Source of the DNA: Anaerolineae bacterium
GTDB taxonomy: Bacteria > Chloroflexota > Anaerolineae > CAZYHC01
Length of the DNA stretch: 64,000 bases
Direction of reading: 5' to 3'
NCBI GenBank assembly: GCA_034417895.1
Contig: DAOULT010000061.1
Location: forward strand, 22,379 to 86,378
Made by a program: the position numbers and the translations under genes. The first letter of the stretch is position 1. Each line of letters starts with the position of its first letter. Positions 1-55,563 of the stretch are shown here, in pieces. The notes under the pieces are model-generated. The model was not told where the DNA came from and ran no database searches. It saw only the letters and a program-made list of their open reading frames with translations.

Positions 1-1111
1 ACCAGGGACGGGCGGGCTCCTGAGCAATATTTTCCACCTGCCTTGCAAGCCCCAATAGCTCATCAATTTCTGCTTCTGTGCTCAATCGGCTCAGTCTTTT
101 AAAAAATAAATCAATTTGGAATGGCCACTGGAAGTGCTTCTCTAATTCCTCGTGCTTTTCACGTACCAGCTCAATCAATTTCTCTGGCACGCGACCTGAC
201 TCTACATCGCTACTGTATAAAGTCAGATGGTTTTCAAATACGGCGTGCATATCCTCAACGGCAGCGGACATTTTGCCCACCTGCAATTCAGCTAACTGTT
301 CGACTTGATATGTTGTCGTCAAAATCAAATAAGCGTTTTTTAGCTCGAGCGCAGTGTTGATTGCAGACAAATAAGGCGACGATGACAAATCAGCCGGGTC
401 AACACCGTTCTCAAAAGCGTCTTCAATAATATAAACAGTATTTTCAGCTAGGTCTGAATCTTGAGCGAATTCAATGAGTGAGCGGGTATCACCAGCTGTA
501 CGCTTATAAATGCTAAACCGATGTCCTGAGATTTGCCCTGCCTCGTGCAGATCAAGACCTAGATGCACGGCGCAGGTAAGTTTGCCCGCGTGTTCTGGGC
601 CATGAACGATGCAAACTCTTTCTCCATGAGTTCCAAACCCATGCTTTCGCATGTCCTCATAGCCCGGTGATGGGACAAATACCGCTTTCACTTTGCGCCA
701 TTCCTCTTTCAACTCGGCCAGTGGCAACTTATCCGTATCAGGGGCTTTTTCATCTGTCATTATAGTTTGAAAAATGTTAAGTATATCGCTTCTAACATCA
801 CTAAGTTTGACACTTGGCCCAGTTACTACGTCGCCACCCACATCGCGGCCTACGGATACGGCTCCTTCACCGGAAGCACTGACCTGCCGCCCGGCCTCTG
901 GAGCCTCAGGCGCTTCCGCTTGCTCATCGCCTGCTGGCGCTTCGGGCACGATCTCGGAAGGCTCCACTTGGGGAGTGGCCTCTAAAGCCTCAGGCGCTTC
1001 TTCTTGCTCGGCAGGCTGCCTTTCTTCCTGTTCGTCAAATTGACTGCCCAATGGCTCGTCCATTGTTTGCTCATCGGGTTGATTATTCAACGGTTCGTCC
1101 GTGATATTCAT
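1..1111 (-). CDS. Hypothetical P-loop NTPase-like protein; 5' end at 1111, 3' end beyond the window edge
   Basis: Hand translation of the minus strand gives an open frame from ATG at 1109-1111 to position 1. Because it has no stop inside the window it is absent from the ORF track. It has an acidic N-terminus (MNITDEPLNNQPDEQ...), a Gly/Val-rich segment GRQVSASGEGAVSVGRDVGGDVV, then a Walker-A-like GPEHAGKLT and a Walker-B-like VYIIEDAF. The gene is lower in GC than its surroundings. Confidence 0.45.
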   Translation of the reverse strand, partial: MNITDEPLNNQPDEQTMDEPLGSQFDEQEERQPAEQEEAPEALEATPQVEPSEIVPEAPAGDEQAEAPEAPEAGRQVSASGEGAVSVGRDVGGDVVTGPSVKLSDVRSDILNIFQTIMTDEKAPDTDKLPLAELKEEWRKVKAVFVPSPGYEDMRKHGFGTHGERVCIVHGPEHAGKLTCAVHLGLDLHEAGQISGHRFSIYKRTAGDTRSLIEFAQDSDLAENTVYIIEDAFENGVDPADLSSSPYLSAINTALELKNAYLILTTTYQVEQLAELQVGKMSAAVEDMHAVFENHLTLYSSDVESGRVPEKLIELVREKHEELEKHFQWPFQIDLFFKRLSRLSTEAEIDELLGLARQVENIAQEPARPW

Positions 1112-1213: not shown

Positions 1214-1279
1214 ATTATACCACACAAAGGTTATAAACAGGTAAAGATCAGGTTAAGATTTGGTTAAAAATTTCAGAAC
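1214..1279 (-). promoter_or_regulatory. Promoter cassette copy A, read on the minus strand: four (A/T)nACC boxes at 11-bp phasing plus extended -10 GTGTGGTATAAT. It drives the minus-strand NTPase gene.
   Basis: The reverse complement reads GTTCTGAAATTTTTAACCaaatcTTAACCtgatcTTTACCtgtttaTAACCtttgtGTGGTATAAT. The geometry matches the copies at 1592-1657, 15640-15713 and 44772-44827. Confidence 0.4.
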
Positions 1280-1583
1280 ATTTGTGCTGCGCAAAAAGCG
1301 GTCTTCGGAAGCTTCTGCGTTTTGAGCGGCGACAAGACGATCTTTGGCGTGACGGGGTTGTTTTGCAAAGGTACATCACCTGCTTCACCTGGCCGGGAGC
1401 AAAGAGCCGGCCCACGCTCTTTCACTACACGTGTGGTAAAGGGCGAGCTATCGTGGTGTGTTAGTCAATGGCGAAAGGGCGTGATGTGGAAGGGGACGAA
1501 AGAAGGACAGGAAGTGAGCGGGCTGGAGCAGTGGAACTGTTGGGCAAGGCTAGGACACAAAGTCTATCACTCGAGGGCATTTA

Positions 1584-1657
1584 GAACCTACGTTCCGAAA
1601 TTTTTAACCGAATTTTAACCTGGGCTTTACCTGGTAGTAACCTTCTTGTGGTATAAT
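1584..1657 (+). promoter_or_regulatory. Promoter cassette copy A2: a GGAACgtagGTTC palindrome, four phased TTTTAACC/TTTACC/TAACC boxes at 11-bp spacing, and extended -10 GTGGTATAAT upstream of the NACHT gene
   Basis: Sequence GTTCCGAAATTTTTAACCgaaTTTTAACCtgggcTTTACCtggtagTAACCttcttGTGGTATAAT. The last ACC box ends 9 nt before TATAAT, as in the three other copies. Confidence 0.45.
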
Positions 1658-1770
1658 ATTTACGGATGGAGTAGAGCCTCCTGCGAAGATGCGGTCTCGG
1701 CCTGCTTTTGCTGTAGCGAATACCAGTTATGCCTGGGTTGCTAAGAAAGATAAAAGCCAATATAATAGGT

Positions 1771-1816
1771 ATATAAAAAACAAAGCCTCGCATGACCGCA
1801 AAACCAGCCGAGGCTT
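1771..1816 (-). terminator. Hairpin AAGCCTCG-N18-CGAGGCTT followed by a T-tract on the minus strand (intrinsic-terminator-like), inside the long 5' leader of the NACHT gene
   Basis: An 8-bp perfect stem. The minus strand reads ...CGAGGCTT TGTTTTTTATAT after the hairpin. The plus strand has no U-tract. Confidence 0.3.
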
Positions 1817-1966
1817 AGCCCAACCATGTAGCCGGAATGCGATGGAGAACCCGACTTTCTGAGGATATCATACCACAGGAGCCTGCCCCTCGCAAACCGG
1901 CGCAGGCTCTTTGTTATTTTGGCCCTTGCCGGTTTGGTGTTTCGTAGATTGTCTGGAGGGGAACTT

Positions 1967-4768
1967 ATGTCAAATAGAGAGCAGGAAATCGAGCACCTGG
2001 AGAAACTGCGGGCCAGGCATCAGGCGAACATCCGCAAGCTGGAAGAGATGCTGGCCGGGTATGGCATGGATCGTCCCTTGCCGCTGCTCAACAACCTGGA
2101 GTTCGAGCAGGAGCAGGTGCGGCAGGTAGAGGAGCAACTGGCGGCTCTCCGTGGAGAGAGGCCGGAGGAGGCTGCCGAAGAGCAGACCACTCCTGCCCCA
2201 ACAGGCGGGCGGCAGGTCACTGCTTCCGGCGAGAGGGCTGTGGCCGTAGGCGGCGACGTTAAAGGAAACGTGATAATTACACAAATGACCGCCGAAGCTT
2301 CCAGAGACTTCTGGCAGCGGTTTGCCGCTCGTCGTTTGTCAAAAGATGAGCTGCACCGGGCTACCAGCAGCTACCTGAAGCACCTGGTAGACCGCTACCG
2401 CTACCTGGACTTCAAAGGGATGGGCGTCTCTGACCGGGTGCCGCTGCGCCTGCCTCTTTTGGAGATGTACGTCCCGCTCAAGGCGCGCATTGAATTGCCC
2501 CAGGGGGAGACCTGGGCGCGCCAGTTGCAACTGGCGGGGCGCAAAGTCAGCGCCGAAGAAGCGGAAATGATGGGCCGGCGCCTGAGCGAGCCGCGCCCGG
2601 CGCTGGAGTTGCTCAGGGAAAACGACGGTCTCATCATCCTGGGCGACCCTGGCGCGGGCAAGACCACTTTCCTCAAGTACCTGGCCCTGCGCCTGGCGAT
2701 TGGGGAGGGAGAGGCTTTGGGCCTGGGAAAGCGGCTGCCCGTGCTGCTGCCCCTTTCGGCCTACGCCAACGTCCTGGCGGAGCGAGATGTGCCCCTGAAT
2801 CGCTTCATCGACGAGTATTACCAGGATCGGGGGGTCGATCTTCCCCTCGGCCCGATGCTGGACGAGGCTCTGGCGCAGGGGGGCGCGCTGCTCCTGCTGG
2901 ATGGACTGGACGAGGTCAGGGAGTTGAGCCAGCGGCACCTGGTGGTAGAGCGGGTGGTGGACTTCTTCACCTTCCAGCGGCAAAAAGGCAACAAGTGCAT
3001 TCTCACCAGCCGCATAGTAGGCTACCGGGAGGTGCGCCCCATAGCGGAGGGGCTAGCGGAATGCACCCTGGTGGATTTCGAGGAAGAGGAGATAGAGCAG
3101 TTTGTGGGGAAATGGACGGGCGCGCTGGAGCGGGCAGCGCGGGGCGAGACGCAGGTGGCCGAGTACGAAGCCGAACGGGAGCGGGAAGAGCTGCTGACCG
3201 CTATGCGTCGCAACCCTGGCGTCAGGCAACTGGCCTCCAATCCCCTGCTGCTCACCATCCTGGCCCTGATGAAGCGGCAGGGGGTCACGCTCCCTGAGAG
3301 GCGCGTGGAGTTGTACGAGCAATACGTGAGGACGCTGCTCAAAAACTGGAACCTGGCGCGTGGATTGGACCGTCCTCCCAGCCGCGATCTGGACGTGGTG
3401 GAGACCGTGCGGGTGCTGGCTCCGCTTGCTCTGTGGATGCACGAGACCAGTCCAGGGGTGGGGCTGGTGAAGCGGGAGGAGATGAGGCGCAGGCTGGAGC
3501 AGATTTACGCCGGGCGAGAGATGCCAGACCCGGAGGGAGCGGCCAGGCAATTGCTGGAAGACGTGCACGATTACGCCGGCCTGCTGCTGGAGCGGGGCCC
3601 TGGAGAGTACGGGTTCATCCACCTGACCTTCCAGGAGTACCTGGCAGCGGTGGCGATTGCCCAGCAGGGCCAGTTGGGAATTGAACCGGTGGTGGAAGCG
3701 TTGACGGCGCGCCTGGGGGACGACAACTGGCGCGAGGTGGCCCTGCTGACCATCGGATACGTGGGGATAGTGGAGCAGCGCGACAAAGCGGCTGGCGCAA
3801 CTCTGGCGAAGTTGATCGAGGCTGCGCCTGGAGAGCCTGGCCCGGCGGCGGTGCTGGCCGGGGAGGCGGTGGCGGATGCCTGGCCCGGCGGCGTGACTCC
3901 GGCTTGCAAAGAGAGAGTGGTGAGGGCGCTGGTAGAGACGTTAGGGGACGAAAAGGTGCAGGCTCCTCTGCGGGCCGAAAGTGGCCGTGTCCTGGCCCGC
4001 CTGGGCGACCCGCGTCCTGGAGTATGCACCCTGCCGCCGGAGTGGGTGGAGATACCTGGCGGAGAATTCGTTATGGGCGAGGGCAGGGAGCAACATAAAG
4101 TGAATCTGCCAGCTTTCTACATCAGCCGCTACCCGATAACCAACGCTCAGTATAAGCTCTTTGTCGAGGCCGGGGGCTATCGGGAGCGGAAATACTGGAC
4201 GGAGGCCGGATGGAAGTGGAAAAAGGACAGAGCAGAGCCGGAGCGATACGGCCCACCGTTCGACCTGCCCAACCATCCAGTGGTGGTTATCACCTGGTAC
4301 GAGGCGGTGGCCTTCTGCCGCTGGTTGAGCGAGGAGATAGGGCAGGAGGTACGCCTGCCGAGCGAAGCCGAATGGGAGAAGGCAGCGCGGGGTACAGACG
4401 GGCGGGAGTGGCCCTGGGGAAACGAGTTCGATGCGGCGCTGTGCAACGTGGGGGATACGAGGATTGGCACGACGAGCGCGGTGGGATGTTTTCCGGGCGG
4501 GGCGAGTCCGTATGGGGTGCTGGATATGGCCGGAAACGTCTGGGAATGGACGCGCAGTCTTTATAGTGAGTATCCTTATAGGGCTGACGATGGCCGTGAA
4601 GATGCGGAGGCTGGTGGCCGCCGGGTGTTGCGTGGCGGGTCGTGGTTCGATATTGAGTGGTTCGTCCGCTGTGCGTCCCGCGACTGGAGCGATCCGCTCT
4701 ACTACAACTTCAACTACGGTTTTCGGGTGGTGGCGTTGTCCCCGCTTTTTCCTACCTCTGGCCTCTGA
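1967..4768 (+). CDS. STAND NTPase of the NACHT family with an N-terminal coiled-coil, HEAT/PBS-lyase-like repeats and a C-terminal formylglycine-generating-enzyme (SUMF1/FGE-sulfatase) fold domain; NLR-like
   Basis: ORF 1919..4768. The likely start is ATG 1967, preceded by the ribosome-binding site GGAGGGG. It has a Walker A GDPGAGKTT, a Walker B LLLLDGLDEV and the NACHT ILTSR motif. The C-terminus carries FGE motifs: YPITNAQYKLFVEAGGY, LPSEAEWEKAARG, WPWGN and VLRGGSW. Confidence 0.85.
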   Translation: MSNREQEIEHLEKLRARHQANIRKLEEMLAGYGMDRPLPLLNNLEFEQEQVRQVEEQLAALRGERPEEAAEEQTTPAPTGGRQVTASGERAVAVGGDVKGNVIITQMTAEASRDFWQRFAARRLSKDELHRATSSYLKHLVDRYRYLDFKGMGVSDRVPLRLPLLEMYVPLKARIELPQGETWARQLQLAGRKVSAEEAEMMGRRLSEPRPALELLRENDGLIILGDPGAGKTTFLKYLALRLAIGEGEALGLGKRLPVLLPLSAYANVLAERDVPLNRFIDEYYQDRGVDLPLGPMLDEALAQGGALLLLDGLDEVRELSQRHLVVERVVDFFTFQRQKGNKCILTSRIVGYREVRPIAEGLAECTLVDFEEEEIEQFVGKWTGALERAARGETQVAEYEAEREREELLTAMRRNPGVRQLASNPLLLTILALMKRQGVTLPERRVELYEQYVRTLLKNWNLARGLDRPPSRDLDVVETVRVLAPLALWMHETSPGVGLVKREEMRRRLEQIYAGREMPDPEGAARQLLEDVHDYAGLLLERGPGEYGFIHLTFQEYLAAVAIAQQGQLGIEPVVEALTARLGDDNWREVALLTIGYVGIVEQRDKAAGATLAKLIEAAPGEPGPAAVLAGEAVADAWPGGVTPACKERVVRALVETLGDEKVQAPLRAESGRVLARLGDPRPGVCTLPPEWVEIPGGEFVMGEGREQHKVNLPAFYISRYPITNAQYKLFVEAGGYRERKYWTEAGWKWKKDRAEPERYGPPFDLPNHPVVVITWYEAVAFCRWLSEEIGQEVRLPSEAEWEKAARGTDGREWPWGNEFDAALCNVGDTRIGTTSAVGCFPGGASPYGVLDMAGNVWEWTRSLYSEYPYRADDGREDAEAGGRRVLRGGSWFDIEWFVRCASRDWSDPLYYNFNYGFRVVALSPLFPTSGL

Positions 4769-11567: not shown

Positions 11568-14500
11568 TCACTTTCGGATAAGGGGCAGATTAACAGAGGG
11601 CTGCCGCACCGTAGTGGTGACCGGGCTGCCCATAGTAGGAGTCACTCCTACGACGTTTGTTATCACCGCCCCGTAGTCGTCGTTAGTGATGAGCGTCCCA
11701 GGGGCTGCATTTTTGTCCACCGTGATCGCGAAGGTCAGGGTGATGCTCTCGGTCGGGCTGATTTCCAGGCCCGACCAGGCCACTGTGTTTGTGGCACTGA
11801 TAAACGTACCACCCTGCCCGATGCTGGCGCAGCAGGTGCTGTTCGCTGGCACGGTATCGGTCACCTGGACGTTGTATTCAGGGATGGTAGGGATGGTGGG
11901 GACGGTTTGTTGCTCAGAAACCTGGCCCGGCCCCGCCCAGCCGTCTGCCAGTCCGCCCGTTGTAGCTCCGCTCGTGGCGGTGAGGACGATGGTGTAGTTG
12001 AGCACCCCGCCCGGAGCCACCGGGTCAGGAGAGTCGCTCTTGCTGATGTCCAGGGATAGGGGGGGCATGACCATAGTGGTCACCGCCGGCCCCCAGACTG
12101 GAGTGGGCACCTGCTCGCAGCATACGCCGCAGATAGTGTTGACGATGGCCTGGCCGCCGGCTAAACTGGAGATGGTCACTGTAAACACGCGATTGATGGA
12201 TGCTCCGCTGGGCAGGCTGGCTACGTTCCAGGTCACGATTCCGTCTGACTCTGTGCCTCCATCGCTGGCCGAGTCGAAGCTGGTGTTAGCGGGTACGGCG
12301 TCGGTGATGACCAGGTTCGAGGCCGGACTCGGGCCGGAGTTGGTGATGGTCAGGGTGTAGGTCAGCAGACTGCCGGCCAGAATCGGGCCCGGTTCCCCGG
12401 CCTTGTAGATGCACAGGCATGGCGGGGGAATGACCGTAGTGGTCACTGCCGTGCCCCAGGTTACAGTGGGCACCTGGTCGCAGCGCACGCCGTAGGTGGT
12501 GTTGGTGATGACCTGGCCGGCGGCTAAACTGGAGATGGTCACCGCAAATGTGCGAGTGATAGATGCCCCACCAGCCAGGCTGGACACCGTCCAGCTTACC
12601 ACATTGCCTGCTGCCAGCGTGCCTCCATCGCTGGCTGAGACGAAGCCTGTGTCAGCGGGCAAAGTGTCGGTGATGACCAGACTGGAGGCCGCGCCCGCGC
12701 CGGAGTTGGCGATGGTCAGGGTGTAGGTCAGCAGGCCACCGGCCTGGACCGGGTCCGGGTTATCGACCTTGGCGATGCTCAAGGATGGCGGGATCTCGCA
12801 AGTGCAGATGCGGAAATCGTCAATGAACCAGCCGTAAGCATCAGCCGAGCTGTCGGTGCCGATGCGGAAGCGGAAGCGCACGTTCTCCCCGGCCAGCATG
12901 CTCAGGTTAAGACGGCTGGAGATGTAGCCGTTGCTTTCCTGGCCAAAGGCCTGTCGCCCACCCAGCGGGTTGCCATAGCCAGTGTAGATGGTTCCCCTGT
13001 AGCCGTTGTGAGTGATCAACGACCCGGCGTCTTGCCACGAGGTGCCGCCATCGGTGCTGTACTCGATCACGCCGCCATCATACATGGTTGTTGCATAATC
13101 TTCGAAGGCGTAGGCGTGGTTGAAGTGCAGGTAGGGCGTGCTTCCGGCTGGCAGGGCCACGTCTGAGGTCATGGCTATGTAGTAGTCGGCGACACTGGGT
13201 TGGTTGTAGCCCCAGAGGTTGTAGACGCCGCTGGTGGCGTAGGTGGCATCGAAGCCGTAGGGATTGGCTGTCTGGGGATAGTACCACTCATCGACTCCGA
13301 CCAGCGCCGCATGAGCCCAGTTGCCGCTGGCTGTGTTCTCCATATCATCAAAGAACAGATTGTTGGGCGACTGTCCGATGGGGCAGATGGAAGACTCGGT
13401 CGCCTGGCATGATGACGGCTGTAGGTTCATCTCCGTGGCGTCCACCGCATCCTTTACCTCCTGGCAATCGGCGGCGGTGATGCCGCTGGTGCCGATCAGG
13501 TTGGTGCACGCCTGTTGCAGGCCGTTGTACAGATCGTTGTAGTCGGCGGCCGAGGTGAACATGTTGGCCTGCACTTCGTAGAAGATCTTGGCTGTTTTGT
13601 CAATGCCGATACCGGCGACGGTGTAGCCGTTGAAGATGTCGCCGTCCACCATCAGGTAGGCGGCTTTGCTGCCGACGCCCATGTTGGTATGCACGCCGCC
13701 GTTGTCCCCTTCGCCACAGTAGTAATAGGTGCTGCCCATTCTATCCGGGTCGCCATGGGCCGGTGGGTTGCTCATGTCGCGGATGGCGCCAATGGGCAGG
13801 TCCTCACCCATCTGCCAGCGGTCGGCCGGCATGTCACTGCCTGCCCCGTTGGTCAGGTCAACGAACTCGCCCCATATATCGGAGAAAGCTTCGTTGACAG
13901 CGCCAGACTGCATGTAGTAGAACAGATGCGAGGCATACTCGGTGACGCCGTGGGTCATCTCGTGGGCCACCACGTCGTCGGCCGCAGCGTAGCCCTCACC
14001 GTAGACCATTTGCTGGCCGTTCCAGAAGGCATTGGCGAAGGGGCAACTGCCTGCGTCCGGGCAGTAGCGCACAGTTTGAGTGAGGGTCATACCGGCGTTG
14101 TCGAGGCTATCCCGGTCATGCGTGTTGTAGTAGAAATCGTACGTGTCGCCGCCGTAATCGTAGGCGTCGTCCGCATCCGGTACACCGGTCGCTGGCCCTC
14201 CCTCGGTACGGACCGGGCCGGTACCAGGCAGACCTGCGGTCCAGTCGTTGTTATTGTCGTAGATCACGCGGTTTCTGGCCACGTCGATCTGGTTGAAGTG
14301 CAGAGCGACCGCCCCGGTGTGGGCATCTATCAGGACCAGTTCGCGGACGGGTTGTAGCTCCACCGGAGTCACTTCCATCCGCCAGACCAGGGCGCTCAGG
14401 TTGAAGCTCGGTCCGAGCAGGATCGGGCTGTAGATCCACAGTTCCGGCTGGCTCACCGTGAGGTCGCCGGCGTTGAGGTCATAGTATTTGGTCACCAGAC

Positions 14501-15041
14501 CACGCGCCAGTTCACGAGCGGTACTTGCCTCCAGCCGGGGGGTGGTGTTCACTTTCAGACCGGGCAGAATCTCCCCGCCGGCGGAGATGACGTTCTTTTC
14601 GGCATCCATCTGGACGATCAGTTCGCCGCCCACCACCGGGATACCCTGATAAACCTGCTGGAAACGGACAAAGGAACGGCCCCGGTCGGCCGATGTGACG
14701 CGCATTACCGTTAGCTCCTGAGCCTGGTCGGTCAGGCCGAAAAGCGGGCCGTAAGTTTCCAGAAACCGCCGGGCGGCCTGCTCTGGAGGGTCTCCCCCTT
14801 GAGGGATGGGGTGGGCCAGGTCGGTGCCGATGAACCGGACCCGGCCGGTTTGGGCGTGATAGGCAATGCTTGCCCGGCCGCCTGTTGCCCGCTGCAACTG
14901 GTCAATCAGGCTTGCGTCTGCGGGAGTTGGCGTTGGTGCCTGAGCAGGGGGGGCGGCTTGTGCGGTGACGAGAAAACCGGGAGAAAGGATCAACAAACTG
15001 AAGCAAACGACAATAGATAGAAAGCGCATTATCAATGACAT
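11568..15041 (-). CDS. Secreted M4 (thermolysin-family) zinc metalloprotease with a propeptide and C-terminal DUF11 repeat domains
   Basis: The ribosome-binding site AAGGAGGAGG precedes the ATG at 15041. It has a signal peptide, the HEXXH motif VVAHEMTHGV and the downstream GAVNEAFSD motif. There are at least three DUF11-type repeats (DNPDPVQAGGLLTYTLTI...). The C-terminus ends in PLIRK. Confidence 0.85.
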   Translation of the reverse strand: MSLIMRFLSIVVCFSLLILSPGFLVTAQAAPPAQAPTPTPADASLIDQLQRATGGRASIAYHAQTGRVRFIGTDLAHPIPQGGDPPEQAARRFLETYGPLFGLTDQAQELTVMRVTSADRGRSFVRFQQVYQGIPVVGGELIVQMDAEKNVISAGGEILPGLKVNTTPRLEASTARELARGLVTKYYDLNAGDLTVSQPELWIYSPILLGPSFNLSALVWRMEVTPVELQPVRELVLIDAHTGAVALHFNQIDVARNRVIYDNNNDWTAGLPGTGPVRTEGGPATGVPDADDAYDYGGDTYDFYYNTHDRDSLDNAGMTLTQTVRYCPDAGSCPFANAFWNGQQMVYGEGYAAADDVVAHEMTHGVTEYASHLFYYMQSGAVNEAFSDIWGEFVDLTNGAGSDMPADRWQMGEDLPIGAIRDMSNPPAHGDPDRMGSTYYYCGEGDNGGVHTNMGVGSKAAYLMVDGDIFNGYTVAGIGIDKTAKIFYEVQANMFTSAADYNDLYNGLQQACTNLIGTSGITAADCQEVKDAVDATEMNLQPSSCQATESSICPIGQSPNNLFFDDMENTASGNWAHAALVGVDEWYYPQTANPYGFDATYATSGVYNLWGYNQPSVADYYIAMTSDVALPAGSTPYLHFNHAYAFEDYATTMYDGGVIEYSTDGGTSWQDAGSLITHNGYRGTIYTGYGNPLGGRQAFGQESNGYISSRLNLSMLAGENVRFRFRIGTDSSADAYGWFIDDFRICTCEIPPSLSIAKVDNPDPVQAGGLLTYTLTIANSGAGAASSLVITDTLPADTGFVSASDGGTLAAGNVVSWTVSSLAGGASITRTFAVTISSLAAGQVITNTTYGVRCDQVPTVTWGTAVTTTVIPPPCLCIYKAGEPGPILAGSLLTYTLTITNSGPSPASNLVITDAVPANTSFDSASDGGTESDGIVTWNVASLPSGASINRVFTVTISSLAGGQAIVNTICGVCCEQVPTPVWGPAVTTMVMPPLSLDISKSDSPDPVAPGGVLNYTIVLTATSGATTGGLADGWAGPGQVSEQQTVPTIPTIPEYNVQVTDTVPANSTCCASIGQGGTFISATNTVAWSGLEISPTESITLTFAITVDKNAAPGTLITNDDYGAVITNVVGVTPTMGSPVTTTVRQPSVNLPLIRK

Positions 15042-15639
15042 GATGTTCCTCCTCCTTTTAATCTAAGGTAGATGATTTTCAAATTTAACTACGACCTGTA
15101 TTCTTATTATAAATCACCTCCTTATCCTGCATGGCAATGCCGTTAACTTGAGGGCCAAGGCGATGAAAACAACAGCCTGACCGCATCCGAAAATCCAAAT
15201 AGATAGCCGTGGAGACAGATTGCCTCTCCACATTCTCGTTGAATCTGGCGCAGCAAGCGAACAGGCGAGACGATATTGTCACCTGGTCTTTAGGCCAATT
15301 CTTAAATTAATGAGATCATATTATCGTCGATGTTCTTTGGGAGATTAGAAGATATTTTGTGGAGTAATTGTAAGACAGAGGAGGTATAATGTGCATTGAG
15401 GTTATGATGTGGCAGAACACAGAGTAGAACGGACAACAAAGCTCTATGCTCGATATAGCTCAAGTGATGGGTACTAGAACAACAGGTCTTCAGAGCCTTT
15501 TAGTACCGCGAAGTTACCAGCGTCGAAAAGAGAGTTTAGCAAATTCCTTTCGTTAGCTTGTTACTAAAATTATAAACCGTCCCCCCTTCAAAGTCAAGAG
15601 CTACAACCTTAAAATTTTGCCTAATTGCCCATTATTAAT

Positions 15640-15713
15640 ATTATACCACAAAAAGGTTATTTTTGGGTAAAGATCAGGTTAAAATTTGGTAAAAAATTTC
15701 AGAACGTATGTTC
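15640..15713 (-). promoter_or_regulatory. Promoter cassette copy B (minus strand) with the GAACgtatGTTC palindrome, located about 600 nt upstream of the protease start
   Basis: The reverse complement reads GTTCTGAAATTTTTTACCaaatTTTAACCtgatcTTTACCcaaaaaTAACCtttttGTGGTATAAT. It is about 85% identical to the copy at 1214-1295. Confidence 0.4.
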
Positions 15714-15728
15714 TAAACATGCTCAATG

Positions 15729-15768
15729 CGCAAACAAACAAAAAGCCCCCGGCCTTAACCGGAGGCTT
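15729..15768 (-). terminator. Intrinsic terminator of the alpha-2-macroglobulin gene
   Basis: The minus strand reads AAGCCTCCGG-ttaagg-CCGGGGGCTT followed by TTTTGTTTGTTTG. Confidence 0.5.
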
Positions 15769-15798
15769 CGTTTGCGCAACAGAACTATTCAAATGGTG

Positions 15799-18700
15799 CT
15801 ATTCGGAGATGGTGAACAGCCGCCCGTCGGAGCGGCCAAACACCTCCGGGAAATACATCTCGTTGGCGAAGGTGGGGATCACCCGGTATTCGCCCGGCAG
15901 GGTGGCGCGGAAGGTGTAGACGTATTCGTAGCTGCCGGCCGGCAGGTAATCGGCGAAGAGCACCATCTTCTCGTCGCGCATCTCGTAGCGGCTGTACCAG
16001 CGCCACCACCACCAGTAGAACTCCCGCCACCGCTCGTTCTGGGATTGGCGGTAGAGGTGAGGATCCCGCTCCAGCAGGCTGGTGGTCGCCAGGCTGGGGT
16101 CGATGGCCTCCGCCCCGGCCGGCAGCGGATCCTCGACGACCACGTAATACAGGTCGTGAGGAGCCACGATGGTCAGCTTGACCTGGATCACGTCGTCGAC
16201 TTTGGCACTGTCCACCTCTTCGCACTCCTTCCCCACGGCGCAGTCGGCCCTGGTGTACTGGCGGTAGACGATGATGCCCCGGTTGATGGGTTCGATGTCC
16301 TCCACGGGCAGGTAGATTTTCAGGTGAGCGGTGTAGTACAGGCGGCCCGGCCCTTCGTAGCGGCCAATGTCCAGTCGGTTGCCCTGGTCACGCAGCAGCT
16401 CGGCCACCGCCACCCGCAGCTTTATGCTCTGGTCCACGTTTTCGGCGTTCACCGCGCCAGAGGCCAGCTCTTCATCGTTGAGGGCGGCGAAGTACTCGTA
16501 CTGGCCCTGAAGCTCGCCGGTTACCACCATCCAGTCGGTCAGGGCGATCAGCGCCCAGGCCGTCTCCTGCGTGGTCTCCCAGATGCCATCCCGCCGGGCG
16601 ACCATCAGCCAGCGCACCACGTTGGGGATCAGGTCGTTGTCCGGATCCAGTTTAGCCAGGGCGTCCAGGATGATGGCCGTAGAACGGGTATCGGTGTTCA
16701 TGGCCCACCAGTCGTAGTGGGCTTCTTCCCAGTGGGCGCCGGTGGCGCTCAGGATGGCGGCGTTGTTGAGGTCGCTCAGGAGGGTGGGGAGGCGGTCATC
16801 GTTGGGGTTAATCAGGTCCAGGGTCATAGCCAGCAAAGCTCGACCGTAGTGAGATAGCTTCTCGCGATTCTCTAACAGGTCGCCGGTGTACTCACTGGCC
16901 CAGGCCGCATTTCCAGCCTCGGCCATAACGTAGAGGATGAACGCCTGACGGTTGGCCTGGCGATAGCCTTTCAGTTCGCGGCTGGTGACCAGTTGACCGA
17001 ACAGGTATTCCAGCCCCCTGGTGATGACCTCTTCCCTCACCTCGAAGCCGGCCTCGCGGGCTTTGTCCATCCCCAGGATTACGTAAGCGGTCAGGTGCGG
17101 GTTGCTGCTGGTGCTTCTGTACCACCACCCCCAGCCGCCATCGTCGTGCTGCATGAGATAGAGCTTGTTCAAGGCCGTCTCCACCAGGTCGGGCAGTATC
17201 TCCTCCAGGTCAGGCCGTTCGATGCCCAACTCACGCAGGGCGCGGTAGGTGAGCACGTTGGGCAGGAACCTGGACACCACCTGCTCGGAACATTCGTAGG
17301 GGAAGTGTTCCAGGTATTTCAGCCCGTCCTGCATCCCCGCGGCCAGAGAGGGATCGAGTTGGATCGTCAACTGACCCTGGCGTTCGTCGTAGCGGGGCGG
17401 CAGGGCTATCACTTCGGTGCGGGTGCCCTGCTCCACCAATTGTCCGCCGGTGCCGACCACCTCCGGGGCAGAGTAGCGATAGACCAGGAGCGTGCCCTCC
17501 GGGCCGGTGGTCAGCCGCGGACGGGCGGCGTCGCTGTATTCCCCGCACACGGCGCTGAAGATCAACTCAGCTTCCTCCACGTCGAGGACGGTCACGTCCC
17601 AGGTCACTTTAGCCTCCCCACCAGCCGGGATGTTGACGGTCTGTTCGGCGTCGCTGTGCAGCTTCAGGCCGCTGGAGCTGAGGGCCACCACGACGTCAAG
17701 GGCCTGGTCGGCGTTGTTGTTGACCAGGGCTGCCAGTTCGGCCCGGTCGTCTACCACGAAGAAGCGAGGGGTGACGGGGCGAACCAGCAGCGGCTTGGTG
17801 ACCAGAATCTCAGAAGTGGCCTCCCCGACCTGGGTGTTGGCGGTGACGGCCACGCCCCGGCATACCCAGGTGGTCAGGTTATCGGGCAGCGGGATCTCGA
17901 CGCTGGCCTGGCCGCTCCGGTCGGTGACTACGGTGGCGTTCCAGTAGGCGGTGTCGGCGAACTCTTCGCGCAGCTCCACTCCCGGCGGAGGCGCGGCCTG
18001 CTTCTCCTCAGCGAATTCCTCGTCTGCCGCCATCCCAGGCGTCATGGTAGCCGCTGGCGCAGGAGGAACCTCCCCCAGCATCATCCCTTCTTCTGCCCCT
18101 CTGGCGTGTTTGTCATACTCTTCGCCCCGCTCTTTGAGTTGTTCCAGCACCAGGCGGTTTATGGAGATAGCCAGGCCGCTGGAAGTGCTTACCCCCAGGC
18201 CCCGCTGGCCGTAGAAAGTGTTGACGATGGCCTCTGGCGGGCGGGGCGAAAGAGTCAGGATAGCTTTATCGACCAGGTCGAGGGAGAAGGCCGCCGCCAC
18301 CGGCTCTCCGGTATGATCGGTGGCCCGCACCTGGTAAGTCACGGTGTCGCCTGGCCCGGCCTTCTCCACGCTGGGGGTCAGGGTGATGGTCAGCTTTTGC
18401 GGCTCAGGATCGACGCTAAAGGCGGCGTAACCGACTTTGTAGTTAGCCACCGGGTTGTCTTCGTCCTGGCCCTTGACGATGACGGCTGAGACGTAGACGT
18501 TGGGCACGTGATCGAGGGTGATGGGCAGCTCGTAGACCTGGCTGTTGCTTTCCAGTTGGAGCACTTCACGATGGATGATGTTGCCCCGCTCGACAGTGAT
18601 CAGAGCATAGTGCTCGCCCTGGAAGGGAGAGGGGATCAGGATTTCAGCCGTCTCTCCCACGGTATAGCTGCCCTTGTCGGCGATGAGGTTGATGCGGTCG

Positions 18701-21700
18701 TTGTTCTCGCGTCGCCAGGAAACGTACTCGCGCCCGCTGACCCACACAAAGATGCTGCTCTGCACCAGGCGCTCGGTGGTGTCGCGCCCGTTGACCACGA
18801 TGCGGTACGATCCGCCTTTGGGCGGGATGAAGGTGGTAACCGCCTCGGCGTTTTGGTCGGTGGTGATGGTCTCCTCAAAGACCAGTTCGTTCACCGTCTC
18901 CCATTTCCAGCGGCCTCCGCCGGCTTCGTCCTCGACGAAGGTGTTGACCCACTCCCGACGGTAAACCTCCACTTTTAGCTTCTGGTTGGGGAACCGCTCT
19001 CCGGCCCAATCGACGGTCACGACGTCCACGGACATCTCTTTTTCGGCCCGCCCGATGTATTGGCGCGGAGCCAGGCCGACGTAAAATTCGCCCTGGTGGA
19101 CGACGATATCCTTCCGACCGGAGATGACCTGGTTGTCTGCGCCGGTAGCGGTGGCTTCCACGATCAGGCGACGGCTGCCCACCGGCCCTTCGCGGTCTGG
19201 AGCGACGGTCAACTGAGCGATGTTGCCCGGCAGCTCGACGATCAGTTGGCCGTTTTTATCGGTGCGCCCCGCCCCGCTGAGCACTACCTGGGGCGGTTCG
19301 GGATACCACCACCAGCAATCAAAGCAAATCCAGGGATCGTTGGTGTCGGTGAATCTGTAGCGACCGAATTGCGGCGGTTTGAAGCGATAGGTTTCGGCCA
19401 TCACGTTCCACTGGACGGGCACGTCTACCACCGGGCCGCCGAAGAAATATTTCACCTCGACGGTGGCCTTAGTAGGCTCTCCGGCCACGACCTCTTCCTG
19501 GTCGGGGGTGACGACCACCTCGAACTCCGGGGGACGATAGGCCGCCACCTGGAAACTGCCGGGGAAGTTAGAGCCTGCGAAGTTAGCCCGAATCTGGTAG
19601 TGGCCCAGAGACGCGCCCCCGGCCAGAGCCAGCTCCCCGTGGAAAGCGCCGAACTCGTCCAACTCCAGTTCCTCGTTATATACCTCCTCCCCGGCGGCGT
19701 CACGAATGGTAACGTACACTGGCTCCAGGTCGGGCAGGCCATAGTGAACGTCGTCTTCGGCGCGGATGATGCCCCGGAAGTACACCGTCTGTCCGGCGCG
19801 ATAGATGGGCCGCTCGGTGTAGACGTGGGCGCGGAAGTCACGCTTATACTCCTGGTTAAAGCCGAAGTCCCAGGACGTGACGCCGGGGTTCCACCCTTCG
19901 CCGCCCATAGTGAAGGGGGCTTCGCTGAGGACGAATATAGTGTTAGAGCGCCCGGAGCCTGTATCGAAGTGAGCCAGCCCATCGGCGTCGGTGGTGGCTG
20001 CGCCCAGCTTGTCTCCGTCCCGGTCGAGGGCCTTGAGTTCCAGGCCCGCCACCGGCCGGCCGGTAGGCAGGTCGGTGGCCCAGGCCAGCATCTCGTCGTC
20101 GGCGATCTTGAGGGTCAGGTTGGTCTCGGACACCACCAGCAGATGACGATGCCACCAGCGTTCGTAGGTCACATCCGGCGAATCGATATCCAAGAGATAG
20201 ATGCCGGACGGCAGCCTTCCCCCGCCTTCGACCAGATCGACGGGCAGGTATTGCTCTTCGTTCAGCGGCGCTTCGACCCACACCGACCAGGCCCGCATCA
20301 GGTCTCTACCAGGCGGGATGAAGTCATACCCCTCTCTCTGGGCCTGGAGGAAGTCATCCACGTCGAGGCCATAGAGCATCAAATCCAGGCGGCTGGTGTT
20401 GAGGTAGGCCACGAACAGGCGAGCCGGGTCGGCGGCGTTGTAGGTGCCCACCAAGCCGGGAACGTGCAGGCGGACCATCGGCTCCAGGGCCGCGGTGGTG
20501 AAGCGCACGGTCATCTCCTGGCCGGTGGTGTTGCCGTAGGGGTCGGCGATGTGGGGGCCGATGTGCACCTGGTAGTCGGTCGAGGGTTGGGGATTGAAGT
20601 AGAGCACAAAACTGTTATCCCAGGTGTCGAAGTAGGTGTAGACCTGGGTAGGCGAGAGCGGCGGGGTCATGGTCAGGTTGCCCATCACCGTGTCGGGGTC
20701 GATGGGGGCGTTAAAATGGATCCTGAAATCGGTGTAGGGATAGGCGTCCTTCGTCCCATCAGGGGGGGAAGTGCCGATGATGCGCGGCAGGGGCGCGGTG
20801 GTGAATCGCCACTCATAGTCAGCGCGCATCCCCTCCCCGCCGGACAGGCTGGTCACCCCGCGGGCGATGCGCACCTCATACGTCTGGTCAAAATCCAGCA
20901 TTTCCTCCGGCTGGAAAACTAAAGTGTTGGTGTAATACTCGAAGTCGCCGATCACCCGGCGGCCATCTGCGGTTTTGAGGCTGAAAGCTTCCTTGAAGGA
21001 TGAGAGGTCTATCGGCTGATTGAACTGCACCTCGATTTTGGTCACAGGGGCCACCAGGGTTTGATCGGTTGAGGGCGTAGTCCAGGTCACTTCGGGCGGC
21101 TGGGTGCTGAAGGTCCAGTCGTAATCTTCTTCCAGGAGGCCGCCGGTAGTGTCGCTGAGGCCGGCCACGACGCGGGCCGTGTAAGTGACGCCTCCGGCCA
21201 GGGGCTTATCCGGGGTGAAGATGTACATGGAGGTGTTCAGCCACTCGCCGCGGCCCGTGACTTGCGGCTCGAAGGTCAGCGGTTGGGGCAGGTCGGCCTG
21301 CTCGTCCAGGGTGGTCAGAGGCACGACGGGGCGGTTGAACATCACCGTCAGGCTGCCATCGGTCTCCACGTCGTAGCTCTCGGGGGCGGGGATGACCTGC
21401 GATACCTCCAGGTAGCCGACGGTGGTGAAGCGGAACGCATAAGTCTCTGCCAGAGAAACGCCGTCAGCGGCTTTGGCTTCCATTCCCAGGCTGACCTTAT
21501 AGGTCGTGGAGCGGGCCAGCGGCTCGGCGGGATAGAAGCGGACTGTCCTCTCGTCGGGCCACTCGAAGCGGCCTGCAACTTCAGGAGCGATGCGGAAAGC
21601 GTTTTCCACCGCAGCCTGATCCATGGCCCGGTCGAAGACCAATTCGACGGGGCCCTCCAGAGGCAACTCCTGGCCGCGCTCAGGCGTGCGCTGGATGACG

Positions 21701-21813
21701 ATGGGGGCCGGAACAGGGCCAGGGGACGCAGAGGTCTTCCTGGGCCGGCCAATGGCCCCCAAAAGCAGGCTGGTCACCACGACCAGCGTTAAAGCGATGT
21801 ACAGGTGTTTCAT
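15799..21813 (-). CDS. Bacterial alpha-2-macroglobulin family protein (about 2000 aa) with N-terminal Big_5/SbsA-type Ig domains and a CxEQ thioester motif
   Basis: The start is ATG 21813 with AGGAGGGAAG upstream and a signal peptide MKHLYIALTLVVVTSLLLGA. The thioester region is LEHFPYECSEQVVSRF. Its size and repeat architecture are typical of bacterial A2M. Confidence 0.85.
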   Translation of the reverse strand: MKHLYIALTLVVVTSLLLGAIGRPRKTSASPGPVPAPIVIQRTPERGQELPLEGPVELVFDRAMDQAAVENAFRIAPEVAGRFEWPDERTVRFYPAEPLARSTTYKVSLGMEAKAADGVSLAETYAFRFTTVGYLEVSQVIPAPESYDVETDGSLTVMFNRPVVPLTTLDEQADLPQPLTFEPQVTGRGEWLNTSMYIFTPDKPLAGGVTYTARVVAGLSDTTGGLLEEDYDWTFSTQPPEVTWTTPSTDQTLVAPVTKIEVQFNQPIDLSSFKEAFSLKTADGRRVIGDFEYYTNTLVFQPEEMLDFDQTYEVRIARGVTSLSGGEGMRADYEWRFTTAPLPRIIGTSPPDGTKDAYPYTDFRIHFNAPIDPDTVMGNLTMTPPLSPTQVYTYFDTWDNSFVLYFNPQPSTDYQVHIGPHIADPYGNTTGQEMTVRFTTAALEPMVRLHVPGLVGTYNAADPARLFVAYLNTSRLDLMLYGLDVDDFLQAQREGYDFIPPGRDLMRAWSVWVEAPLNEEQYLPVDLVEGGGRLPSGIYLLDIDSPDVTYERWWHRHLLVVSETNLTLKIADDEMLAWATDLPTGRPVAGLELKALDRDGDKLGAATTDADGLAHFDTGSGRSNTIFVLSEAPFTMGGEGWNPGVTSWDFGFNQEYKRDFRAHVYTERPIYRAGQTVYFRGIIRAEDDVHYGLPDLEPVYVTIRDAAGEEVYNEELELDEFGAFHGELALAGGASLGHYQIRANFAGSNFPGSFQVAAYRPPEFEVVVTPDQEEVVAGEPTKATVEVKYFFGGPVVDVPVQWNVMAETYRFKPPQFGRYRFTDTNDPWICFDCWWWYPEPPQVVLSGAGRTDKNGQLIVELPGNIAQLTVAPDREGPVGSRRLIVEATATGADNQVISGRKDIVVHQGEFYVGLAPRQYIGRAEKEMSVDVVTVDWAGERFPNQKLKVEVYRREWVNTFVEDEAGGGRWKWETVNELVFEETITTDQNAEAVTTFIPPKGGSYRIVVNGRDTTERLVQSSIFVWVSGREYVSWRRENNDRINLIADKGSYTVGETAEILIPSPFQGEHYALITVERGNIIHREVLQLESNSQVYELPITLDHVPNVYVSAVIVKGQDEDNPVANYKVGYAAFSVDPEPQKLTITLTPSVEKAGPGDTVTYQVRATDHTGEPVAAAFSLDLVDKAILTLSPRPPEAIVNTFYGQRGLGVSTSSGLAISINRLVLEQLKERGEEYDKHARGAEEGMMLGEVPPAPAATMTPGMAADEEFAEEKQAAPPPGVELREEFADTAYWNATVVTDRSGQASVEIPLPDNLTTWVCRGVAVTANTQVGEATSEILVTKPLLVRPVTPRFFVVDDRAELAALVNNNADQALDVVVALSSSGLKLHSDAEQTVNIPAGGEAKVTWDVTVLDVEEAELIFSAVCGEYSDAARPRLTTGPEGTLLVYRYSAPEVVGTGGQLVEQGTRTEVIALPPRYDERQGQLTIQLDPSLAAGMQDGLKYLEHFPYECSEQVVSRFLPNVLTYRALRELGIERPDLEEILPDLVETALNKLYLMQHDDGGWGWWYRSTSSNPHLTAYVILGMDKAREAGFEVREEVITRGLEYLFGQLVTSRELKGYRQANRQAFILYVMAEAGNAAWASEYTGDLLENREKLSHYGRALLAMTLDLINPNDDRLPTLLSDLNNAAILSATGAHWEEAHYDWWAMNTDTRSTAIILDALAKLDPDNDLIPNVVRWLMVARRDGIWETTQETAWALIALTDWMVVTGELQGQYEYFAALNDEELASGAVNAENVDQSIKLRVAVAELLRDQGNRLDIGRYEGPGRLYYTAHLKIYLPVEDIEPINRGIIVYRQYTRADCAVGKECEEVDSAKVDDVIQVKLTIVAPHDLYYVVVEDPLPAGAEAIDPSLATTSLLERDPHLYRQSQNERWREFYWWWWRWYSRYEMRDEKMVLFADYLPAGSYEYVYTFRATLPGEYRVIPTFANEMYFPEVFGRSDGRLFTISE

Positions 21814-21837
21814 TTTCTTCCCTCCTGATCTCAGGTG

Positions 21838-21856
21838 ATCGTGGACGTACCACGAT
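21838..21856. promoter_or_regulatory. Inverted repeat ATCGTGG-acgta-CCACGAT, about 25-45 nt upstream of the A2M start; operator-like
   Basis: It has perfect 7-bp arms and an adjacent GCCATGGC palindrome. Confidence 0.25.
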
Positions 21857-22182
21857 GGCCATGGCGCTAAATCTACCTTAGAGACGTTGGAGCTGGCGAG
21901 AAAGTTCCCCCACGTTGCTGCTGATGGGTGCATTGTACCACAGCCTCTTCAGGGGGTCAAAGAGGACAGCAGGGGCCTGGCACGACGAACGTTCGCTGTT
22001 GAAGTGCCAGGCGGCTGAAAATTGGAAAGTCGGAAAAACGCGAAGAATATGGTATAATGTCAGGCGTGGAGCGGCCATTGACCGGCTCATTCGCAGGGGG
22101 CTGACGGCGAGGTGACACCGCTAGACGAAGGTTTCAATTTCGCATTGTGTTTATCTCCGAAGAGGAGAAAGGAGAAAATAAC

Positions 22183-44707: not shown

Positions 44708-44771
44708 CGAAGAGGGCTAATCCAGGAATTGGCAAAAAAGAGCGCAGGTCTTGCTCTCAGAGCAAGTCCTT

Positions 44772-44827
44772 TTTTAACCAGATTTTAACCTTATTTTAAC
44801 CAGATAATAACCATAACGTGGTATAAT
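44772..44827 (+). promoter_or_regulatory. Promoter cassette copy D: four phased TTTTAACC/TAACC boxes at 11-bp spacing plus extended -10 GTGGTATAAT, upstream of the receiver gene
   Basis: TTTTTAACCagaTTTTAACCttaTTTTAACCagataaTAACCataacGTGGTATAAT. Confidence 0.45.
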
Positions 44828-44883: not shown

Positions 44884-45249
44884 ATGAAAAAGAAGGCCAG
44901 AATCATGGTGGTGGACGATAACGAAGCCATGAGGGAAAGCTTCCGGCTGATACTCTCGGCCGAGGGTTATGAGGTGGTCACGGTGGAGCGTGGCCTGCAA
45001 GCCCTGGCCAGGTTGGGGGAAAACTCTTTCGACCTGGTTCTGACCGACCTGGCAATGCCCGGTATGAGCGGTCTGGAATTGTTGGGCAACATCAGAGCCA
45101 TAGCTCCTCAAACAGCAGTGGTGGTCGTTACCGGCCAGACATCGTTGCCCTCGGCCCTGATGGCCCTGCAAAGGGGAGCCAGCGATTACCTCGATAAAAC
45201 TATGAGCGCTGAAGAGATGTTGAGCGTGATCCGAAAAACTCTAAGGTAA
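44884..45249 (+). CDS. Single-domain response regulator (CheY-like receiver only)
   Basis: ARIMVVDDNEAMRESF ... DLVLTDLAMPGMSGLELL. There is no output domain. Confidence 0.85.
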   Translation: MKKKARIMVVDDNEAMRESFRLILSAEGYEVVTVERGLQALARLGENSFDLVLTDLAMPGMSGLELLGNIRAIAPQTAVVVVTGQTSLPSALMALQRGASDYLDKTMSAEEMLSVIRKTLR

Positions 45250-54412: not shown

Positions 54413-54472
54413 AGGCTCTACCTGGGCTATCAGCCCCGGAAAATCTCGTGACCCGGGTAACCTACCACCTGA

Positions 54473-55558: not shown

Positions 55559-55563
55559 TCACT

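Follow-up and report, generated by a model that had tools for sequence, protein, structure and literature searches.

The 64-kb window, which is the whole stretch of 64,000 nucleotides of Anaerolineae bacterium DNA analysed here, contains four copies of a 60-80 bp promoter-like module. Each copy, called a cassette in this text, is built from four direct repeats of 8 bp (consensus CTTAACCT) that are separated by 3-bp linkers; another 8 bp lead to a TATAAT preceded by TG. The cassette is probably an activator-dependent promoter with an OmpR-type operator array that was propagated in front of conflict and defence, secreted-protease and signalling genes, with a palindrome, a second promoter (P2) and a leader RNA as further layers. 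Transcription from the cassette promoter (P1), the identity of the binding protein and its signal are points that we infer from the DNA sequence.

Architecture of the four cassettes

The cassettes and the genes that they face are listed here.

1214..1289, - strand: cassette A (P1-A), with TGGTATAAT at 1214-1222 and ACC at 1229-31, 1240-42, 1251-53 and 1262-64 (+ coordinates)
1584..1657, + strand: cassette B (P1-B), with GAAC-N4-GTTC at 1584-1595, ACC at 1607-09, 1618-20, 1629-31 and 1640-42, and TGGTATAAT at 1649-1657
15640..15715, - strand: cassette C (P1-C), with TGGTATAAT at 15640-15648 and the palindrome at 15702-15713
44770..44827, + strand: cassette D (P1-D), with four boxes and TGGTATAAT at 44819-44827, without the palindrome
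2..1111, - strand: nSTAND3-like NTPase gene (Pfam), target of A; its 5' part is said to run off the window
1967..4768, + strand: STAND gene with NACHT and FGE-sulfatase domains (Pfam), target of B; start revised to ATG 1967, with a GGAGG ribosome-binding site
11568..15041, - strand: secreted M4 (thermolysin-type) protease gene with FTP propeptide and DUF11 repeats, target of C
44884..45249, + strand: receiver-only response-regulator gene (121 amino acids; Pfam), target of D

When the sites were read directly, all four copies were present where a previous, sequence-only reading of this DNA had placed them, and the Pfam assignments of the downstream genes agreed with the identities given there. 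The extents given for the cassettes were slightly short, as conservation continues to 1289 in A and to 15715 in C and begins at 44770 in D. The ACC triplets are spaced by exactly 11 nt in A, B, C and D, as had been claimed; they begin at 1607, 1618, 1629 and 1640 in B and, seen as GGT on the + strand, at 1262, 1251, 1240 and 1229 in A. The repeat unit is an 8-bp conserved core, whose consensus can also be written (C/T)TTAACCT, plus a 3-bp linker, and the units are arranged head to tail. The box sequences depart from the previous description in box 1 of C (TTTTTTACC) and box 3 of D (TTTTAACC), and the distal boxes are A/T-rich (AAATTTTTAACCAAATCTTAACC). The end of the last 8-mer is 8 nt from TATAAT. 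A 9-nt spacer had been reported after the last box, and this is the distance from the last ACC to TATAAT; the distance from the last ACC to TGGTATAAT is only 6 nt. All four cassettes have a perfect TGnTATAAT as extended -10.

The strict pattern TTAACC-N5-TTWACC-N6-TAACC-N5-GTGGTATAAT, with up to three mismatches tolerated, gave exactly four matches in the window and none in the control, which was 100 dinucleotide-preserving shuffles (0 expected). TGGTATAAT occurs five times in the window compared to 0.13 expected, and four of the five occurrences are those of cassettes A-D. A profile hidden Markov model made from 22 cassette copies did not find any additional copy in the window. Gapless identity among A, B and C is 80-87% over 56-76 nt, and D is 75-79% identical to the other cassettes over 56 nt. 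Since stop codons are found in five to six of the six reading frames of every cassette, the cassettes are non-coding. All four are intergenic, and each is oriented toward a gene start. Over the 22 copies from the window and its relatives, conservation begins at about -75, peaks on the boxes and the -10 and collapses right after TATAAT, which is the pattern expected if transcription begins just downstream. The intergenic position, the aim at gene starts and this exact halt at TATAAT bear out the previous description of the module as a promoter cassette. Promoter coordinates are given here with the putative transcription start 7 nt after TATAAT.

A sigma-70 consensus scan called none of the four P1 sites because there is no -35-like hexamer 16-18 nt upstream. 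An ordinary promoter of the same genome, in contrast, has a -35 (TTGACA-18-TGATATAAT at 45353-45382). Box 3 (TTTACC) was considered as a -35 and rejected, as this would require a 20-nt spacer. The fifth TGGTATAAT of the window, at 22050-22058 on the + strand, has neither ACC boxes nor a -35. It is located about 130 nt before the likely ATG (22184) of a gene for a DUF11/PMP-repeat surface protein, the open reading frame (ORF) of which was called from 22147, and it may be an extended -10-only promoter.

Known operators, relatives and downstream genes

The sequence-only reading had proposed a regulator that binds direct repeats, possibly a winged-helix response regulator. This proposal gained support, since the geometry of the array equals that of pho and SARP boxes and since an OmpR-type regulator and its kinase adjoin diverged cassettes. 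In pho boxes, each of the tandem 11-bp units is made up of 7-8 conserved and 3-4 variable bases, and PhoB-family monomers occupy the units in head-to-tail order about 10 bp before the -10 (PMC4415409, PMC1906773). SphR of Synechocystis requires at least three 8-bp repeats with 3-bp linkers, and its consensus is CTTAACCT (PMC1906773). Box 2 of the cassette is identical to this consensus. The Pho boxes of PhoB in E. coli, SphR in Synechocystis and PhoP in Streptomyces and Bacillus share with the cassette the 11-bp units, two to four or more of which replace the -35, and the end of the array about 10 bp before the -10. They differ in that the cassette's targets are not phosphate genes and that its copies are near-identical over 60-80 bp, linkers included. 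In SARP boxes, the repeats are 11 bp apart and the 3' repeat is 8 bp from the -10; the afs box extends from -40 to -19, and the first 8 bp of each unit are contacted while the last 3 are not (PMC10936776). The cassette has the same 11-bp direct repeats and the same 8 bp to the -10, with boxes 3 and 4 at about -39 to -18. However, SARP boxes are actinobacterial, belong to antibiotic gene clusters and usually have two repeats, whereas the cassette has four repeats, a perfect extended -10 and defence and protease targets, and is found in Chloroflexota. Neither the window nor the set of Pfam-scanned genes showed a BTAD or SARP gene.

PhoB/SphR and SARP-type proteins all carry an OmpR-type winged-helix domain, and TTAAC- and GTTAC-type half-sites are common among OmpR-family regulators such as ArcA and OmpR. 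As in class II OmpR/PhoB operators, the cassettes have at least two head-to-tail 11-bp repeats, and the array replaces the -35 and ends 8-10 bp before the -10. We propose that each cassette would act as an activator-dependent promoter of the housekeeping sigma factor. The four-unit array, from about -61 to -18, would take the place of the -35, ending 8 bp before the extended -10, and would most likely bind two tandem dimers of an OmpR-type winged-helix protein. The candidate binder is an OmpR/PhoB-family response regulator or a SARP-like protein, which would bring in sigma region 4 and RNA polymerase in the manner of PhoB and AfsR. If the module was copied before unrelated genes (promoter propagation), one regulator could co-induce a regulon of conflict and defence systems, secreted proteases and surface proteins, and signalling proteins. 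The extra layers on this promoter would be the palindrome in B and C, a constitutive P2 45-110 nt downstream in B and C, a P2 remnant in A and a terminator-ended leader RNA in B.

Public genomes, one per species, were scanned with the pattern ACC-N8-ACC-N8-ACC-N6-TGGTATAAT, which does not require the fourth ACC. The scan gave 36 loci, about 28 of which are from Chloroflexota, mostly Anaerolineae. The same three-ACC pattern gave 26 further loci in metagenomes and no match in viral contigs. Individual loci are cited below by their L numbers. The Anaerolineales metagenome-assembled genome (MAG) CAZYHC01 has at least 17 copies of essentially the window's cassette and the MAG CAZNSC01 has three. 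Other Anaerolineae have the same geometry with different box sequences, and these sister families include the box types AAATTAACC (four times), GTTACC/GTAACC, TTTGACC (three times), TCTAACC (four times), TATGACC, CGTGACC and alternating GTTTACC/GTATACC. An ACC at the fourth position, although the scan did not require it, was found in 13 of 19 independent families compared to one of 10 presumed chance matches. Box similarity was 2.82 of 5 matches within a cassette and 2.11 of 5 between families (permutation p <= 2e-4). The box sequences within a cassette change in concert and are therefore true direct repeats, which fits recognition by a sequence-specific protein.

In several sister families the linkers are GC-rich and A-tracts are missing, as in CCGTGACC-CTC-CCGTGACC and GTTTACC-CTC-CGTATACC. 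Curved or UP-like DNA had been offered previously as a second explanation of the boxes, and it is now disfavoured because the ACC boxes, and not phased A-tracts, are conserved in the sister families. One sister type, GTTACC, is repeated every 0.85-1.8 kb before small ORFs adjoining PqqD and radical-SAM/SPASM genes; repeated copies are found in L027 (2996, 4795, 5827), L033 (2667, 3544, 4374), L051 (two), L024, L049 and L039. From their layout, these arrays look like ribosomal-peptide clusters in which each precursor gene has its own promoter copy.

According to Pfam and PADLOC, near-identical cassettes precede non-homologous genes. The defence targets include Cas10, a RAMP protein of the Cmr1/Csm3 type, a type IIG restriction-modification enzyme (E = 5e-288), an HmaA/DrmD/BrxH-like SNF2 helicase and proteins of the TIR and ThsA-like SIR2 types. 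Other genes behind near-identical cassettes encode C11 and S8 proteases, a DUF4384 protein, a primase-like protein and two SBBP beta-propeller proteins, and diverged copies precede tyrosine recombinases and a REC-GerE (LuxR-type) regulator. The targets of the sister families are a giant M23/cohesin/BNR protein, a C11 + DUF4384 protein, GerE regulators, PqqD/radical-SAM peptide clusters with small-ORF arrays, BrnT toxin, a receiver-only protein, multihaem cytochromes, a serine recombinase, MsrAB and a GAF-HisKA_3 kinase. No housekeeping gene was found among the cassette targets examined. The presence of a near-identical module before unrelated genes of the immune, protease and signalling types suggests that they are activated jointly by one regulator. 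The cassettes had been described as a small regulon that links defence-like and secreted-protein genes. The link holds and is extended by the targets in the relatives; the small size does not hold, as one relative carries at least 17 copies.

Putative mobile promoters have been defined as sequences of at least 50 nt with at least 80% identity upstream of non-homologous genes that have non-homologous upstream neighbours (Matus-Garcia et al. 2012; PMC3488235). Cassettes A, B and C fall within this definition, being 80-87% identical over 56-76 nt with unrelated downstream proteins. Like putative mobile promoters (PMC3488235), the cassette has multiple copies per genome and is shared between related genomes. 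That category is purely operational, whereas the cassette shows an internal logic (an operator array plus an extended -10) and a target bias. Upstream extensions of about 60-170 bp are common to subsets of copies. Positions 1430-2276 of the window are 77% identical to L006 over the extension, P1, the leader and the first ~100 codons, and the remaining parts of the proteins differ. Promoter propagation appears to act on a whole 5' control module made up of operator, promoter, P2, leader RNA and sometimes an N-terminal adaptor domain.

A domain of about 60-100 amino acids is common to several unrelated proteins at 61-71% identity (40% for the nSTAND3 protein). It is located at 1967-2280 and 820-1060 (-) in the window, and at L006:3404-3715, L021:1230-1444 (-) and L032:4076-4256. 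The NACHT, DUF4384 and L021 proteins carry it at the N-terminus and the TIR protein at the C-terminus, and it is also found in the nSTAND3 protein. The shared domain resembles a homotypic adaptor (effector-associated) domain that would connect sensors with effectors.

Candidate regulators and competing explanations

A tblastn search with the PhoB DNA-binding domain found OmpR-type regulators in just two of the collected loci, L059 and L002, and both are beside the cassette. Pfam assigns to L059 a 7TM-GAF-PAS kinase, a REC + Trans_reg_C regulator, the cassette and a thioester adhesin, in that order. In L002, the cassette is divergent from a pair composed of a HisKA kinase and a REC + Trans_reg_C protein. 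Orthologues of the L059 regulator (76-79% identity) are present on L065 and L068, where the kinase-regulator operon is retained and where phased boxes and a TATAAT directly follow the regulator gene, before a receiver-only gene. These four loci (L059, L065, L068 and L002) link the cassette to a kinase/OmpR-type pair in sister families only, and the link is an association and not proof.

Several points weigh against an OmpR-type activator. There are two independent cases of adjacency, both in sister families whose boxes differ in sequence, and no OmpR-type regulator was found beside any TTAACC-family copy. No Trans_reg_C regulator was found in the window, where all ORFs of at least 90 amino acids except three short ones were scanned. 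The two-component genes downstream of cassettes are of the NarL/LuxR, HisKA_3 or receiver-only kinds, and the NarL/HisKA_3-type targets could point to a different regulator class. The linkers as well as the boxes are strongly conserved among copies, and thus much of the identity is due to recent copying and not to selection on binding sites. Also, the perfect extended -10 might let P1 fire without an activator.

Receiver-only (CheY-like) genes recur as the first gene behind different cassette families (window 44884-45249, L054:169-567, L065:7015-7200 and L068:6992-7411), and their recurrence hints at a phosphate-sink or connector role in the circuit. One conserved target gene across families was considered and rejected, as the receivers and kinases downstream of different families are not orthologous.

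The close match to SphR raises the question of whether the cassette is a true phosphate-starvation (Pho) promoter, with pho boxes for a PhoB/SphR orthologue and targets induced by phosphate limitation. Box 2 has the SphR consensus, and the three or more 8+3 repeats and the distance to the -10 fit as well (PMC1906773, PMC4415409). However, none of the approximately 45 downstream genes of all families is pst, phoA/D/X, phoU, ugp or another phosphate-acquisition gene, and no PstS or PhoU homologue was found in 480 kb of collected loci. TTAAC/GTTAC-type half-sites are also common in the OmpR family. Because no phosphate-acquisition gene is downstream, the cassette was not filed as a Pho regulon despite the identical box consensus, and we consider a Pho promoter unlikely. 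Another explanation, which appears rather unlikely to us, is a self-sufficient strong promoter that was copied around the genome and has no dedicated regulator, in which the extended -10 would be sufficient and the boxes would be UP-like, curved or hitch-hiking. The perfect extended -10 and the A/T-rich distal boxes speak for such a promoter. The 80-97% identity, linkers included, before non-homologous genes fits the definition of a putative mobile promoter (PMC3488235), and the conserved flanking modules occur patchily. Nevertheless, sister families keep 11-bp-phased ACC boxes with GC-rich linkers and without A-tracts, and the boxes of one cassette share a flavour that changes from family to family. 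The cassette is linked to OmpR-type two-component genes, and its targets are functionally biased and do not include housekeeping genes.

The recurrence of other two-component genes as targets would suit a NarL/LuxR-type regulator (GerE helix-turn-helix) with a HisKA_3 kinase partner, which would bind the boxes and be autoregulated, with no winged-helix protein involved. Such targets are the cassette D receiver of the window, which is beside a GAF-HisKA_3 kinase, the REC-GerE gene of L001, the GerE genes of L058 and L060, the receiver-only gene of L054 and the GAF-HisKA_3 kinase of L046. GerE-type regulators usually bind inverted repeats as dimers and not four head-to-tail 11-bp repeats. Being a target does not make a gene the regulator, and the cassette D receiver and the others are not orthologues. 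The only DNA-binding regulators that are beside the cassette without being its target are of the OmpR type. We regard a NarL/LuxR-type binder as distinctly improbable. The least probable explanation is that the cassettes are recombination or transposition sites, either the ends of a miniature mobile element or an inverted pair flipping the ~300-bp spacer between A and B, with incidental promoter features. A and B are indeed inverted copies around ~300 bp, the family has multiple members, several MAG contigs end close to one of them, and diverged copies precede tyrosine-recombinase (L011, L030) and serine-recombinase (L057) genes. However, copies normally stand alone, as C and D do, neither terminal inverted repeats nor target-site duplications are evident, and the module boundaries are ragged. 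Copies are always intergenic and gene-facing, and their conservation stops exactly at TATAAT. A phage or plasmid origin was rejected, as phage and plasmid records gave chance-level matches only and viral contigs gave none. We regard a role as recombination sites as very improbable.

A broader and more tentative extension is a lineage-wide immune regulon, in which one winged-helix regulator would act through cassettes before more than 20 unrelated conflict systems, many of which would be gated again by a shared leader RNA. This possibility, for which we hold no great confidence, would cover type III CRISPR effectors, the type IIG enzyme, SNF2, TIR, SIR2, HEPN and STAND proteins and secreted proteases, and the leader RNA, which had not been described before, might act as a riboswitch or as an attenuator that depends on a protein. 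The usual view of anti-phage and conflict systems is that each is regulated individually or expressed constitutively. Should the extension be true, defence in filamentous Chloroflexota would be switched on as one coordinated programme and not system by system. The operator logic itself is classical; what is new is the near-identical propagation across unrelated immune genes and the shared leader. One near-identical operator-promoter module before many unrelated defence, protease and signalling genes in an uncultured Anaerolineales lineage provides a testable handle on coordinated bacterial immunity, both as DNA bait for the regulator and as a motif for genome-wide regulon mapping. In addition, phased ACC boxes followed by TGnTATAAT appear to form a general promoter grammar of Anaerolineae, which could improve annotation in a phylum with almost no experimental promoter data.

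Palindrome, second promoter, leader RNA and surroundings

GTTCYGAAA had been reported in three copies together with a GAAC-N4-GTTC palindrome. The former is present in A, B and C; the full palindrome is found only in B and C, and A has GCAC-N4-GTTC. In A, GTTCTGAAA is at 1271-1279 and the degenerate half-palindrome GCAC is at 1284-1287. The palindrome of B and C, AGAAC-N4-GTTCY, is centred near -74.5 and recurs in L006, L012, L016, L021, L011 and L030. About half of the copies have a degenerate left half (GCAC), and some copies have no palindrome.

GAAC-N4-GTTC is the LexA motif of Firmicutes and Actinobacteria, with variants reported in Chloroflexi (PMC4951493). The palindrome of B and C exactly matches this LexA (SOS) box of Gram-positives and Chloroflexi (PMC4951493). 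It may be a LexA operator, so that B, C and similar copies would also be DNA-damage-gated; this would add to the other explanations and not replace them. The window has three occurrences, two of which belong to cassettes and share one offset there, and the motif recurs in the six loci of relatives named above. However, three occurrences in 64 kb are barely above chance (at least three were reached in five of 100 shuffles, which is marginal), and the left half is degenerate or the palindrome is missing in many copies. Unlike a site where a repressor occludes polymerase, a centre near -74.5 is too distant to block RNA polymerase at P1. Control by LexA is possible, with the greater probability on the other side. 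No LexA homologue was found in the 480 kb of collected loci. At L011:4640-4690 and L030:7210-7260 (-), where diverged cassettes precede tyrosine-recombinase genes, the -10 is within a ~42-bp palindrome, GTGGTATAATTTTATGGGAGC-TT-GCTCCCATAAACTATACCAC, which may be an autoregulatory operator.

Three of the four cassettes are followed by some form of a canonical second promoter, namely P2 after B and C and a -10-only remnant in the leader of A. These elements, the leader RNA and the spacer between A and B are listed here.

1738..1766, + strand: P2-B, TTGCTA-17-TATAAT, ~110 nt downstream of P1-B; homologous P2 in related loci
15569..15597, - strand: P2-C, TTGACT-17-TATAAT (11 of 12 matches), ~45 nt downstream of P1-C
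1743..1943, + strand: leader RNA element of roughly 190 nt, from a 13-copy family of ~150-190 nt
1290..1583, no strand: spacer between the back-to-back cassettes A and B, with two upstream-extension modules

The remnant in the leader of A is a second extended -10-like sequence, TGGTACAAT, at 1141-1149. This leader of the nSTAND3 gene is about 95 nt long from the putative P1-A start, with 102 nt from the end of TATAAT to the ATG. In relatives, P2 is TTGCGA-17-TACAAT. The leader between cassette C and the M4 protease gene is ~590 nt long.

The leader RNA of B has a hairpin, AAAGCCTCG...CGAGGCTT, at about 1783-1816 (family hairpin AAGCCUCG...CGAGGC) and an intrinsic terminator, in which the stem GAGCCTGC (1879-1886) pairs with GCAGGCTC (1902-1909) before a T-run at 1910-1920. 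An alternative start of the NACHT gene, TTG 1919, falls within this T-run. The terminator ends 45 nt before ATG 1967, compared to 35-40 nt in several relatives and 35-130 nt across loci. With so short a distance between the two, transcription of the gene must pass through the terminator. The other members of the leader family are in L035, L032, L023, L025, L005, L028, L017, L006 (two copies), L021, L003 and L016. Every copy has a canonical promoter of its own as well as the hairpin and the intrinsic terminator. The genes behind the family are unrelated, and they encode proteins that include Cas10, Cmr1, a type IIG restriction enzyme, an SNF2 helicase, SIR2, NACHT, an ORC/HEPN ATPase and a P-type ATPase. 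Compensatory changes between subtypes were seen in the terminator stem only, and the copies are too similar for more. The window leader folds modestly better than shuffles (z = -1.6).

A search of 4227 Rfam families against the window and 15 loci (gathering threshold and E <= 1-5) gave no match for the cassette or the leaders, and the sole match was a group II intron in L003. This intron (L003:1-1900, -; Rfam D1-D4 match, reverse transcriptase with maturase domain) is located ~100-150 nt downstream of the cassette and occupies the place of the usual leader and gene. The leader family could be a novel attenuator or riboswitch-like leader, or an independent small-RNA gene. As in dual-promoter, attenuator-controlled leaders (riboswitch-like 5' regions), P1, P2 and then a terminator-ended RNA follow one another at B and at least nine related loci. 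In contrast to known riboswitch-like leaders, the window leader matches no Rfam family. The cassettes had been said to control the genes downstream, and each does face a gene; at B, control would not be that simple, as P2 and the terminator-ended leader RNA intervene.

The upstream extensions jointly fill the spacer at 1290-1583. Its A side (~1290-1345) is conserved in L003, L019, L028 and L035, and its B side (~1416-1583) in L006, L012 and L016. At the junction of the two modules (~1393-1414) there is a GC-rich hairpin, GGCCGGGAGCAAAGAGCCGGCC (GGCCGG-GAGCAAAGAG-CCGGCC), without a T-run on either strand. The ORF at 1322-1618 (98 amino acids) across the spacer was rejected as a gene, as it has no Pfam match and overlaps cassette B, and homologous spacers have non-triplet indels.

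The other genes of the window (YbeY, YqeY, Dtd, DHDPS, ABC transporters and an exopolysaccharide cluster) are ordinary chromosomal genes, none of which is behind a cassette. The Pel-like exopolysaccharide cluster at 52937-63152 (-), likewise not behind a cassette, encodes a PelG-like exporter, two DUF2194 proteins and a PD40 beta-propeller protein. Upstream of the M4 protease gene is a gene for a bacterial alpha-2-macroglobulin of 2044 amino acids (a protease inhibitor; 15799-21933, -); its strong terminator (15742-15769) is between the two genes, upstream of cassette C. A GAF-HisKA_3 kinase gene (43466-44707) is directly upstream of the receiver gene of cassette D, and box 1 of D overlaps the T-run of its terminator hairpin (44750-44766). 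The promoter at 45353-45382 heads an ORF of 79 amino acids (region 45353-45620, +) with a CxxC...CxxC zinc-ribbon pattern, located between the receiver gene and a large membrane glycosyltransferase-like gene.

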